In this document: piece by piece, positions 22,672 through 31,038 of the stretch | How positions within the stretch are numbered: position 1 is the stretch's first letter | How the letters are laid out: every line of letters begins with the position of its first letter | Source: Erysipelotrichaceae bacterium MTC7 | GTDB lineage: Bacteria; Bacillota_I; Bacilli_A; Erysipelotrichales; Erysipelotrichaceae | Assembly: GCA_001695645.1 (NCBI GenBank) | Contig: LVZN01000056.1 | Coordinates: 30,001-62,000 of the forward strand | Length of the DNA stretch: 32,000 bases | Reading direction: 5' to 3' | Notes under the pieces: generated by a model | Databases searched by the model: none | What the model saw: only the letters and a program-made list of their open reading frames with translations | What the model was told of the DNA's origin: nothing | Translations under genes and position numbers: made by a program

Positions 22672-22932
22672 TCATTAAAAAAACATTCATCCATAAGGAC
22701 GAATGTTATCGCGTTACCACCTTAATTCGTTATTGCATCACTACAACAACCTCTTCAAGTTCTATCAAACTCTAGCACGCTAACGGGTGCAACCGGTACA
22801 ATCTAAAGTAAACTCTCAACTGTACTACTCCAAGACCATATTCAAGTTCGACTCGTCATATCCCTTTTCACCAACCGGGACTCTCTATGAAGACTTTTGA
22901 TACTCTACTCTTCTTTTCATCGTATTTGTATT
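22672..22932 (-). ncRNA. T-box riboswitch leader (probable Met/AUG specifier) controlling metNIQ
   Basis: All elements are on the minus strand. The promoter is TTGACA (22967..22962)-17-TAAAAT (22944..22939). Stem I elements are AGAGAG...GGTGAAA. The specifier-loop context is TTGAAT-ATG-G...GGAGTAG, with ATG at 22839..22837. The T-box sequence AATTAAGGTGGTAACGCG lies at 22727..22710. The terminator AACATTCGTCC-ttat-GGATGAATGTT plus TTTTT lies at 22707..22677, just before the metN RBS GGAGGA. Confidence 0.8.
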
Positions 22933-28494: not shown

Positions 28495-28622
28495 AACGTT
28501 CCATCCTTTACTTTATGATTACTATTATACACCAAACTGTGAACTTTACCTGAAAAATGTCATCAGCACTTGTATTATTCTTTAACAAGAATATAATATA
28601 TCTTAATACAAATGAGGTATCT

Positions 28623-29030
28623 ATGAATAATCTAAAATACAAATTATATCGATTCATGCAAGGACGTTATGGAAATGACCAACTAAATATTTTCCTACTC
28701 GTGTTTTCTTTGTTGTTTAATATCATTATGAATATCTTTGTGGGACGAGGAACAATCATAACCATTGTAACCCTTGTACCGTTGGCTATTTTTTGGTTTC
28801 GATTCTTTTCACGCAAGGTGTATCGTCGTCGCTTAGAAAACAATAAATTTTTAAGCCTTTGGTACAAAATCCGTGCTCCTTTCAAACGCACAAAACGCAA
28901 GTTTGAAGATAAAAGTCACAAATATTACAAGTGTCCAAAATGTAAACAAGTTGTTCGGGTACCTAGTGGAAAAGGTAAAATTGAGATTACTTGCCCTAAA
29001 TGTAAAACAAAATTTACAAAACGTACATAG
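28623..29030 (+). CDS. small membrane protein with C-terminal zinc ribbon
   Basis: I prefer ATG 28623 (RBS AATGAGG) over the ORF-track start at 28557. Two TM helices are followed by a basic linker and CPKC...CPKC. The promoter candidate is TTGTAT-16-TATAAT (28570..28597). Confidence 0.6.
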   Translation: MNNLKYKLYRFMQGRYGNDQLNIFLLVFSLLFNIIMNIFVGRGTIITIVTLVPLAIFWFRFFSRKVYRRRLENNKFLSLWYKIRAPFKRTKRKFEDKSHKYYKCPKCKQVVRVPSGKGKIEITCPKCKTKFTKRT

Positions 29031-29044
29031 TTATATATAAAGTA

Positions 29045-29071
29045 AAAGATTGGAAAACTCCAATCTTTTTT
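29045..29071 (+). terminator. rho-independent terminator after the zinc-ribbon gene
   Basis: AAAGATTGGA-aaac-TCCAATCTTT followed by TTT. Confidence 0.75.
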
Positions 29072-29138
29072 CGTATTTGCACAGCATGTGAAATTCACTA
29101 GGATAACTTTATTATTTCACGATCATACTGCACATAAT

Positions 29139-29224
29139 AAAAAAAAGCCCATGCAGGCTTTTGTTAATTAGGATGTAAAACAAGGTAGGAAGATAGGAAA
29201 GGGATATTTAACCTCGTTTTACTT
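29139..29224 (-). ncRNA. candidate ~85-nt small RNA with a CU-rich (anti-SD-like) loop
   Basis: All elements are on the minus strand. The promoter is TTTACA (29258..29253)-17-TATAAT (29235..29230). An 11-bp stem GUAAAACGAGG/CCUUGUUUUAC encloses the loop UUAAAUAUCCCUUUCCUAUCUUCCUA. A terminator follows: AAGCC-ugcaug-GGCUU plus a U-run (29160..29139). No ORF is present. Confidence 0.4.
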
Positions 29225-29319
29225 AGTTTATTATAGCAATCCAAATCATCTTTGTAAATATTTTTTTACATTAATTATGTTTCATTTGATTCTTCATCAT
29301 GATTTATGTCAATAAATAG

Positions 29320-29526
29320 AAAAAAACAACCATCCATTATGATGATTGTTTCTCAGCTTGAGTAAACGTTCTTCCCAAAAACGTATGTCAAATTCAATGT
29401 TTAGGGGTTAACAAGGAATTTTAGACAAAAACTCAAGATACCCTACTTTTATAGTAGGAAAATACAATATTACTTTGTTCACCCTTCCCTGGTGAACGTT
29501 TTCATTGGATAACCTTTCCTATCCTG
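29320..29526 (-). ncRNA. candidate ~205-nt structured RNA (or short-ORF transcript) of unknown function
   Basis: All elements are on the minus strand. The promoter is TTGACA (29559..29554)-16-TATTAT (29537..29532). Hairpins include GUUCACC-agggaag-GGUGAAC, CCUACU-auaaa-AGUAGG and a long-range CUUGAGU/ACUCAAG pairing. The terminator AAACAAUCAUC-auaaug-GAUGGUUGUUU plus U7 lies at 29351..29320. The only SD-led ORF is 8 codons (29505..29479). Confidence 0.35.
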
Positions 29527-29607
29527 TCTCTATAATACTATAGATAAACATATTGTCAAGCATAACCTATAAATAAGGTATGAATTAATTTATAAGTAAA
29601 AGATTAT

Positions 29608-30333
29608 CTAAATATAGATAATCTCTAAATGACCAAGTGAAACTTGACCAATAATTGTTAATTTCGGCAAACTATAGTCTCTTTCATGGAAGGTTTCATC
29701 CACACCACCCAAACTAGATGTCACATCCACTTGCGTATTCCATTCTCTAGGTATGTAAAGTTTCATCTCTCCAAGGGAAACATCAAGTTTAATCGTAGCT
29801 CCTGCTGGATCTAATTTTGCTTGTTGTAAGTATAATTGAAGTGTTCCAAGACTTACGTCAGCAGTGATTTGTTTTAAACTTTGTGAATGTATATATTGAA
29901 CACTTCCAGAAAGTGATGATGAAATTCGAATAATATTTTCGTCATGGCTGCTTTCTTTACTTGCATCCATGTGTTTTGAACTGTTGCGATATTGTATGTG
30001 ATTGTAACGATATGAGCTATTTTTGAACAATATCGATAAACCGATACTAACAAATGCACCTGCTCCCATTAGTGGCCAAAAACCAACGACATTATCAAAT
30101 TCTAAATAACTTCTGTTGATCCAGAAAGCTAAGCATAGTGGCATCACAATTAAAAACCAATTACGATACTTCACATTACTCACTGCAACGACTAGCAACA
30201 ATACCGTAAAAATCATATGTGTTAAATTGATTGATAAATCAAACATTGGTGCAAGCACAATAAATAATCCTAACCCTATAAACAACAATCCCCATAACCA
30301 ATTTGTTTTCTTATTCATAATAACTCCTTTCAT
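29608..30333 (-). CDS. LiaF-like/DUF2154-type membrane protein (4 TM helices plus C-terminal beta-rich domain), putative partner of the LytTR regulator
   Basis: TM helices include WLWGLLFIGLGLFIVLAPMF. The C-terminus VSLGTLQLYL...VSLGEMKLYIPREW...SSLGGVDE...VSLGHLEIIYI shows the repeated motifs typical of the LiaF C-terminal domain. It overlaps the upstream LytTR gene by 23 nt. Confidence 0.75.
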   Translation of the reverse strand: MKGVIMNKKTNWLWGLLFIGLGLFIVLAPMFDLSINLTHMIFTVLLLVVAVSNVKYRNWFLIVMPLCLAFWINRSYLEFDNVVGFWPLMGAGAFVSIGLSILFKNSSYRYNHIQYRNSSKHMDASKESSHDENIIRISSSLSGSVQYIHSQSLKQITADVSLGTLQLYLQQAKLDPAGATIKLDVSLGEMKLYIPREWNTQVDVTSSLGGVDETFHERDYSLPKLTIIGQVSLGHLEIIYI

Positions 30334-30772
30334 GAAGTCGTAACTTCAATTCTTTATAGTACATTCGTGAAACGTACACCTCTTTTACACTGTTCATAAA
30401 CCGAACCAAACTACTGCTCGTAATATTTTTTTGCAAAGACATAATCTTTGATAGGTTGATAATCGTTGATTTACTCACTCGCATAAAACTGTCAGGCAAT
30501 TCCTTCTCCAGTTCATACAAGCGAAGTTTCACAACGTATGCATCATTTTTTGTATGTGCATACACACCATCAGTAGATGTTTCAAAAAACAAGATTTGCT
30601 CGACCGGTACAAACAATTCTTCTTCATCTTTATACAGGACCAGACGTTTTACACCTTTGAGCCGATTTTGGATGAATTTTTGAATATCTTTGACTTCTTT
30701 TGTTATATCTTTTGTTTTTATAATGATCTCTTCATCATTTTCATCTTCGATTAACTCAATATGTATCTTCAT
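30311..30772 (-). CDS. stand-alone LytTR-family DNA-binding regulator (no receiver domain)
   Basis: The protein is 153 aa. FVPVEQILFFETSTDGVYAHTKNDAYVVKLRLYELEKELPDSFMRVSKSTIINLSKI matches the LytTR domain pattern. RBS AAGGAGAA precedes the start. Confidence 0.85.
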   Translation of the reverse strand: MKIHIELIEDENDEEIIIKTKDITKEVKDIQKFIQNRLKGVKRLVLYKDEEELFVPVEQILFFETSTDGVYAHTKNDAYVVKLRLYELEKELPDSFMRVSKSTIINLSKIMSLQKNITSSSLVRFMNSVKEVYVSRMYYKELKLRLHERSYYE

Positions 30773-30961: not shown

Positions 30962-31038
30962 TGGGGCGACCGAAGGGATTTGAACCCTCGCATGACGGGA
31001 CCACAACCCGCTGTGTTAACCGCTTCACCACGACCGCC
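30962..31038 (-). tRNA. tRNA-His (anticodon GUG) with encoded G-1 and CCA
   Basis: The minus strand reads GGCGGTCGTGGTGAAGCGGTTAACACAGCGGGTTGTGGTCCCGTCATGCGAGGGTTCAAATCCCTTCGGTCGCCCCA. The anticodon loop is UUGUGGU. The extra 5' G pairs with C73, the T-loop is GGTTCAAATCC, and the length is 77 nt. Confidence 0.9.

Follow-up and report, generated by a model that had tools for sequence, protein, structure and literature searches.

The window analysed here, a 32,000-nucleotide stretch of the genome of Erysipelotrichaceae bacterium MTC7, is predicted to encode two neighbouring non-coding RNAs on its minus strand, an sRNA of about 85 nt that presents a C/U-rich loop and a purine-rich RNA whose repeated sites are complementary to that loop. 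The sRNA (29223-29139) is most likely one member of a new family of trans-acting sibling sRNAs of Breznakia, an insect-gut genus of the Erysipelotrichaceae. Taken together with its partner, designated RNA-U or GA-RNA, it fairly likely belongs to a system in which a family of sibling sRNAs is countered by a sponge RNA with multiple sites and for which neither Hfq nor CsrA would be needed. Promoter, terminator, fold, copy number, stem covariation, loop constancy and, in four genomes, complementarity to the partner were all computed. The predicted pairing of the sRNA family with a syntenic multi-site partner RNA would be more informative than the sRNA alone.

The sRNA gene is situated in an intergenic gap of 577 bp (29031-29607) between a zinc-ribbon gene and a LiaF-like gene (Table 1). 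An earlier note, made from the letters of the window alone, had proposed a near-consensus minus-strand promoter in this gap, and such a promoter is indeed present, matching 11 of the 12 consensus positions and including the TG of an extended -10 element. The GC hairpin and U-run that had been proposed to end the RNA about 85 nt later are likewise found. The 11-bp stem described between them is also there; addition of a closing U-A pair extends it to 12 bp, one of which is G-U, and shortens the loop from the 26 nt originally given to 24 nt. A short linker separates the stem-loop from the terminator. In the minimum-energy fold of a 92-nt stretch (-22.2 kcal/mol, z = -4.5) the entire loop is left unpaired, and none of 200 shuffles folded as well.

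The view that no plausible ORF is present was borne out as well, as only ORFs of 26-27 aa overlap the sRNA and, in the alignment of copies, indels in the 5' part of the loop disrupt their frame from one copy to another. A coding reading was rejected, the overlapping small ORFs having neither a conserved frame nor conserved spacing. The Rfam check proposed for the region revealed no described family. At the gathering threshold, a scan of the whole window assigned neither the sRNA nor RNA-U to a family, and at E values up to 10 the region 28950-29700 returned noise only (ctRNA_pT181 at 20.7 bits against a threshold of 56, and snoRNAs). The covariance model of LhrC (RF00616) gave no match at either of these two settings, and no curated Rfam model of RsaE/RoxS, csRNA or other described Firmicute C-rich sRNAs matches the sRNA. 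Elsewhere in the window, Rfam recognised a T-box leader (124 bits) and a tRNA gene (22692-22929 and 30965-31037, both on the minus strand), which are unrelated to the sRNA. With its own promoter, an intrinsic terminator, no ORF and conservation across copies, the element has the features of a base-pairing sRNA with a C/U-rich seed; as the earlier note had supposed, an independent RNA of about 85 nt, with the unpaired C/U-rich loop as its functional part, is very probably encoded here, as predicted from the sequence.

Table 1. Features of the sRNA gene, its predicted partner RNA and the flanking genes, in window coordinates.
Feature	Position	Strand	Remarks
Zinc-ribbon gene	28557-29030	+	Name supported by Pfam
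Predicted sRNA, ~85 nt	29139..29223	-	Ends taken from promoter and terminator
sRNA intrinsic terminator	29139..29162	-	Stem 29162-29143, then U-run to 29139
sRNA 5' stem-loop	29175..29222	-	Arms 29222-29211 and 29186-29175
sRNA loop, 24 nt, UAAAUAUCCCUUUCCUAUCUUCCU	29210-29187	-	C/U-rich
sRNA loop core UCCCUUUCCUAUCUUCC	29188..29204	-	Presumed pairing seed; identical in most copies
sRNA promoter, sigma-A-type	29230..29258	-	-35 TTTACA 29258-29253, 17-nt spacer, extended -10 TGcTATAAT (TATAAT 29235-29230)
RNA-U (GA-RNA), ~208 nt, predicted non-coding	29319..29526	-	From promoter, terminator and fold
RNA-U terminator	29354-29321	-	Predicted
RNA-U site 3, UGGGAAGA	29377-29370	-	-10.1 kcal/mol
RNA-U site 2, AGGGAAGGG	29490-29482	-	Across loop of first long hairpin, -14.7 kcal/mol
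RNA-U site 1, AGGAUAGGAAAGG	29525-29513	-	Extreme 5' end, 13 contiguous pairs, -19.5 kcal/mol
RNA-U promoter	29532..29559	-	TTGACA-16-TATTAT, 11/12 consensus positions, conserved in B. blatticola
LiaF-like gene	29608-30333	-	Name supported by Pfam

A covariance model (R1), built from an alignment of 18 distinct sRNA copies, identified 19 copies in total, namely two in the present genome (G000), five in Breznakia sp. PF5-3 (G001), two in B. blatticola (G002), eight in B. pachnodae (G003) and one in each of two genomes of neighbouring genera (G074 and G115). The copy in the window is matched at 29169-29223 (contig C56, 59169-59223) with 79.7 bits (E = 5.9e-13), and the second copy of the same genome is located at C12:85975-86027. 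In BLAST comparisons with the related genomes, several matches per genome were obtained, confined to the stem-loop part. Searches with R1 through 149 genomes of the family and 148 of the order returned nothing outside Breznakia, G074 and G115. Among 185,579 species genomes, the exact 19-mer ATATCCCTTTCCTATCTTC, which spans most of the loop and overlaps its core, is restricted to Breznakia (B. pachnodae, B. blatticola, B. sp. PF5-3 and one MAG), the three further matches outside the genus being attributed to chance, without stem and promoter. A metagenome scan with the 17-mer core gave at least 80 loci, none of the listed ones fitting R1, and all were regarded as chance.

Most of the 19 copies are preceded by a TTGACA or TTTACA element and a TATAAT-like element, with the promoter ending 6-9 nt before the stem, and a terminator of its own (a hairpin and U-run after the stem) could be read in 18 of them. 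No shared operator was visible by eye upstream of these promoters. The flanks of the copies are unrelated to one another, and the element is therefore not a mobile repeat.

Conservation of the stem by compensatory changes in relatives, which the earlier note had put forward as a check, proved strongly positive. Over the 18 copies, standard pairs account for 98.6% of the stem cells and both sides have changed in seven of the 12 pairs (examples being GUAAAACGAGG/CCUUGUUUUAC, GUAAAGUGAAG/CUUCACUUUAC and ACAAAGUAAGG/CCUUACUUUGU), a degree of pairing reached by none of 500 shuffles; when the 3' partners were slid by 1-3 columns as a control, only 39-51% remained paired. Nine stem G-U cells would become C-A mismatches on the opposite strand, and the minus strand is therefore the RNA strand. 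The pyrimidine loop, of 17-22 nt, is nearly constant across the copies, with a core that is unchanged in most of them, and in the G115 copy this core is kept on an entirely different stem (GCAAAGUAUAGU/ACUAUACUUUGC). Since the stem covaries and the loop is constant, the stem is selected for pairing and the loop for sequence. A conserved unpaired stretch carried on a covarying structure is, as judged from the alignment, the signature of a presented seed.

The earlier note had gone further and read the loop as a mimic of the 16S anti-Shine-Dalgarno (SD) sequence. What stands of this claim is that the loop is rich in C and U and, by its composition, complementary to SD sequences; what does not stand is any specificity. 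The 16S rRNA of the present genome ends in GGAUCACCUCCUUUCUA and its genes mostly use AAGGAGG, whereas the loop is devoid of CCUCC. When 2358 ORFs were called crudely and loop duplexes were scored against 2344 translation-initiation regions, the mean was -10.3 kcal/mol, as compared to -7.3 kcal/mol for intragenic windows. On the same 2344 regions, 36 shuffled loops of the same composition gave means of -8.8 to -11.0 kcal/mol, and the number of regions at or below -18 kcal/mol was 54 for the real loop and 6-81 for the shuffled ones. As shuffled loops pair equally well, general SD complementarity is an effect of composition, and the general anti-SD hypothesis was rejected as a specific property. 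Any mRNA regulon of the sRNA is a candidate only, as shuffled loops match the overall affinity of the real one for initiation regions.

The best predicted target in the present genome is the start of a prophage regulator (C78:21252), where about 21 nt (UAGGAAGGUAGGAAGAGGGGAUA) would be paired at -30.4 kcal/mol, a modest excess over the minima of the shuffled loops (mean -23.7, sd 1.9, best -28.5 kcal/mol). The gene (C78:21228-21842) encodes a protein of 196 aa with a sigma-70 region-4-like domain and lies within a prophage spanning about 15-45 kb of the contig; its start region has the 14-mer UAGGAAGGUAGGAA in common with the partner RNA of B. blatticola. No close orthologue of this strain-specific regulator was found in the other genomes. 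It therefore cannot explain the conservation of the loop throughout the family and was rejected as a family-wide target, being retained as a low-confidence candidate of the present genome, by way of which the sRNA may be tied to prophage late-gene control. The next-ranked predicted targets of the same genome display no common theme. A search for one long conserved mRNA target yielded no site with complementarity of at least 16/18 nt shared by the other genomes.

Further candidate targets, all of low confidence, would be the starts of an Spx/ArsC-like gene (conserved in B. blatticola), of a TatD-like gene (conserved in G074) and of a P-type ATPase gene of B. blatticola, the three gene names being our own readings, together with the 5' end of the roughly 300-nt leader that precedes a duplicated secreted protein (C12:90925). 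The start of the Spx/ArsC-like gene (C1:224880-224916; GUAGGGAAAAGGAAAGGAGUAAUAGGAAGAUAUG) contains four short loop-complementary sites and is partly conserved in B. blatticola (C17:10653). The leader (C12:90925-91222) is structured (z = -2.9), follows a TTGACA-17-TATTAT promoter and begins with GUAGGAAGUAGGGAAGG, which is complementary to the sRNA loop; it precedes a signal-peptide protein of 371 aa without Pfam domain and has a copy on C1 at about 96.7 kb. No Rfam family was found in the C12/C1 leader or in two other candidate-target regions. One antisense match to the loop (-30.7 kcal/mol) lies on contig C2 of the present genome, the viewed stretches of which have a G+C content clearly above the genome average of 37%, a foreign element or contamination being possible.

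RNA-U, the gene of which directly adjoins that of the sRNA in the window, is strongly structured (z = -3.7 to -4.2), and several of the GA sites of the partner RNA are located in hairpin loops. Its B. blatticola orthologue is 80% identical and contains four sites of 13, 9, 15 and 10 nt. Measured against dinucleotide-preserving shuffles, loop-complementary sites are in excess in both (P ~0.006 for RNA-U, <0.0005 for B. blatticola), and RNA-U ranks 6th to 23rd genome-wide for clustered sites when all 220-nt windows are considered. A tiny ORF of 6-8 codons can be read within it (29482-29505, minus strand; MKTFTREG here, MFTREG in B. blatticola). Neither its start position nor its SD-like spacing is conserved, it overlaps the GUUCACC/GGUGAAC hairpin, and it is probably not translated. 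In the neighbouring segment (29608-30772, minus strand), the gene of a receiver-less LytTR regulator (153 aa) overlaps that of the LiaF-like membrane protein (241 aa), and this module may control the partner RNA.

In all four Breznakia genomes, the partner element follows immediately downstream of the single LiaF-like orthologue, whose protein ends in ...IEIIYI or ...VDIIYI, and is carried on the same strand. PF5-3 possesses eight exact GGAAG-N2-GGAAAGG units within 180 nt and about 15 predicted sites in the full element, and B. pachnodae has a purine-rich non-coding region of about 650-850 nt with about 22 predicted sites and no ORF of at least 50 aa. The Tandem Repeats Finder consensus of the B. 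pachnodae array, read on the opposite strand, is CCTTTCCTATCTTCCTAAA, which is the sRNA loop itself; the repeat consensus is thus the exact complement of the loop. Sites of the GA-RNA take the form GGAAG-N2-3-GGAAAGG, and most array units form 14 bp with the loop around a single bulged nucleotide, with energies of -19 to -27 kcal/mol. A 5' module is also common to RNA-U and the arrays and consists of a hairpin GUyCACC...GGUGrAy, an A-rich linker and a hairpin UUCCUACU...UAGGG. The gene convergent to the arrays encodes, by our own reading of the translated sequence, a DnaQ-like exonuclease, and in PF5-3 an orthologous sRNA copy is found about 1 kb beyond the array, past this convergent gene.

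The mean window energy of the real loop against the real arrays was -12.3 kcal/mol in PF5-3 and -11.8 kcal/mol in B. pachnodae, compared to -9.3 and -8.6 kcal/mol for shuffled arrays and -8.5 and -7.8 kcal/mol for shuffled loops. Windows at or below -20 made up 8.5% and 14.6%, respectively, with the real sequences, 1.3% with shuffled arrays and 0.1% with shuffled loops. The complementarity between loop and array is sequence-specific and exceeds what composition provides, although shuffled purine-rich arrays still pair with the real loop (9-18 sites), such that the signal is in part compositional. A second predicted non-coding RNA that carries seed-complementary sites, above chance and conserved with the sRNA, as would be looked for in a sponge pair, is thereby found.

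The purine strand is likely to be the transcript of the arrays, because the promoter and terminator of RNA-U are clear in that orientation, because the arrays end in a hairpin and U-run facing the convergent gene, and because the extended -10 promoters predicted in B. pachnodae lie on that strand. The array terminators are bidirectional, and the strand call therefore rests on synteny and on the predicted B. pachnodae promoters; the PF5-3 array yielded no sigma-70-like promoter. Searches of G074 and G115 with two motif patterns found no array. A type III toxin-antitoxin repeat RNA was considered and rejected, given that the arrays end at a terminator facing a convergent gene and no toxin gene follows on the same strand; in this window, it is the sRNA gene that comes after the partner RNA. 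Sites and sRNA genes number 3 and 2 in the present genome, 4 and 2 in B. blatticola, about 15 and 5 in PF5-3 and about 22 and 8 in B. pachnodae. The apparent rise of site number with sRNA gene number, in four related genomes, is suggestive only.

CsrA (PF02599) was not found in the four Breznakia genomes or in G115, the E. coli, B. subtilis and T. maritima controls being positive, and Hfq was not found in the same five genomes, the control genomes having scored. CsrB-like and Hfq-dependent models were rejected on these grounds. With no CsrA found, GA-RNA is unlikely to be a protein sponge of the CsrB type, and the action of the sRNA is probably independent of Hfq. Given that hairpin loops hold several of the GA sites, pairing by loop-loop contacts is plausible.

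In the mechanism proposed, each sRNA copy would be transcribed from its own strong sigma-A promoter, starting at the base of the 12-bp stem that presents the constant pyrimidine loop as the pairing seed, and would be ended by its own terminator. GA-RNA, encoded downstream of the LytTR/LiaF-like pair and bearing from 3 to about 22 sites, would act as the sequence-specific partner of this seed and, as a multi-site sponge, would titrate the sibling sRNAs and set the level of free loop. The loop left free would block the translation of mRNAs by pairing with their purine-rich 5' ends and ribosome-binding regions. From the features computed, we infer the expression of both RNAs, their pairing in vivo, the direction of control (GA-RNA as sponge or as target) and the identity of the mRNA targets. 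A more elaborate version is offered tentatively, as a possibility. It envisages an RNA-only stoichiometric circuit in which 2-8 siblings share one constant loop and face a single tandem-array sponge, the number of sites (3 to ~22) having co-evolved with the number of sRNA genes and loop-loop pairing taking place without Hfq. Such a circuit may be connected both with the neighbouring LytTR/LiaF-like module, of the envelope or peptide-signalling kind, and with the control of prophage late genes.

The roles could also be reversed, with GA-RNA as the effector, for instance a decoy that would capture a protein binding GGA or purines or, through its SD-like repeats, the 30S subunit, and with the sRNAs as its antagonists having no mRNA regulon of their own. 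An affinity of the loop for initiation regions that does not go beyond composition would suit this arrangement, as would the facts that no sequence-specific partner other than GA-RNA was found throughout the four Breznakia genomes, that the GA units resemble SD-like words (GGAAAGG, AAGGAAG) and that GA-RNA adjoins a LytTR/LiaF-like signalling module. CsrA, the known reader of GGA repeats, was however not found in the five genomes, and the GA units are without GGAGG, which is canonical in this genome because the 16S end is CCUCCUUUCU. The sRNA is also present in G074 and G115, in which the motifs tried revealed no array, and strong, dispersed sRNA promoters combined with strict loop constancy are typical of seeds with multiple targets. 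Reversed roles are on this balance unlikely.

The constant loop might alternatively be the binding site of a protein, for instance a cold-shock, S1 or KH-type reader of pyrimidine tracts, with RNA pairing being incidental. Invariance over at least 17 nt is indeed stricter than most pairing seeds need, and the other genomes yielded no extended mRNA target that is conserved. Such a reading is quite improbable nonetheless, as it leaves unexplained both a syntenic partner with up to about 22 exact-complement repeats and a complementarity above both shuffle controls, and no candidate protein was identified. That hairpin and arrays are non-functional repeats, i.e., remnants of mobile or recombination-prone sequence, is suggested by the multi-copy nature of the element, the variable length of the array and the restriction to one genus and its neighbours, but is to be held highly improbable. 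The copies have unrelated flanks, and nearly all of them are equipped with a promoter and terminator of their own; the stems keep their pairing through compensatory changes, with G-U on one strand only; the loop is far more strongly constrained than the stem, and the position of the partner RNA is kept in four genomes.

The Erysipelotrichaceae are a common gut family, and no description of a regulatory RNA in Breznakia or other members of the family was found in the literature. Both C-rich-seed sRNAs and sponge RNAs are already known as such. A tandem-array sponge with up to about 22 sites for sibling sRNAs was not among the bacterial cases found in the literature, and neither was a site number that tracks sRNA copy number without Hfq or CsrA being found. 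If true, the arrangement would parallel in bacteria the multi-site microRNA sponges known from eukaryotes, and the system could show the co-evolution of sRNA dosage and sponge capacity. As B. blatticola and B. pachnodae are represented in culture collections by their type strains, the prediction is directly testable.

Among the systems already described, the LhrC1-5 sRNAs of Listeria monocytogenes are encoded in multiple copies and pair with ribosome-binding sites by UCCC motifs located in a loop, a linker and the terminator loop (PMC4132741). Both are multi-copy siblings of about 100 nt from a low-GC Firmicute with a 5' stem-loop that displays a CU-rich UCCC loop, followed by a linker with a further C-rich word (ACCCU, in 11 of the 19 copies here) and an intrinsic terminator, and the LhrC motif pairs with G-rich sequence at ribosome-binding sites, as is proposed for the present loop. 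In the present family, UCCC occurs in the loop of the Breznakia-type copies and ACCCU in the 11 linkers, neither having been seen in the terminator loops. Whereas LhrC relies on three short redundant motifs, one long constant loop of 17-22 nt is found here; the promoters appear to be constitutive sigma-A promoters rather than LisR-dependent ones, the copies are dispersed instead of clustered, and a dedicated partner RNA with tandem sites is not described for LhrC in PMC4132741.

For the predicted sponge, the nearest parallels are RosA, which acts on RoxS and FsrA in B. subtilis, and RsaI, which acts on RsaE, RsaG and RsaD in S. aureus, where G-rich regions sequester the C-rich regions of the sRNAs (PMC8216469). 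In these cases, as is proposed here, a stand-alone G-rich sRNA pairs with the C-rich regions of trans-acting sRNAs and so neutralises the seed directed at ribosome-binding sites. They differ in that RosA has three G-rich regions and RsaI two, as against 3-4 sites in two of the present species and about 15 and about 22 in two others, in that the partner is here genetically linked to one sRNA copy, and in that there is no sequence similarity. QrrX with Qrr1-4 in Vibrio (PMC9732341) and CrfA with SisA-D in Caulobacter (PMC12559287) offer precedents for one sponge that addresses a sibling family by way of its conserved seed. Both are Hfq-dependent, whereas Hfq was not found here, and CrfA has a single mapped site (G49-C63; PMC12559287), in contrast to the many repeated sites described above, which seem to scale with the number of sRNA genes. 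GA-RNA is moreover reminiscent of CsrB/RsmZ in being rich in repeats and in having numerous units that contain GGA, in part located in hairpin loops; its repeats nevertheless match the sRNA loop and not the CsrA consensus, and no CsrA gene was found in the five genomes. By analogy, the C-rich-seed sRNAs of the Firmicutes and their sponges would be the functionally closest systems, and the present one would be set apart from what is known by four differences, namely the long constant loop, the apparent absence of Hfq, the linkage of sponge and sRNA and, above all, the organisation of the sponge as a tandem array.
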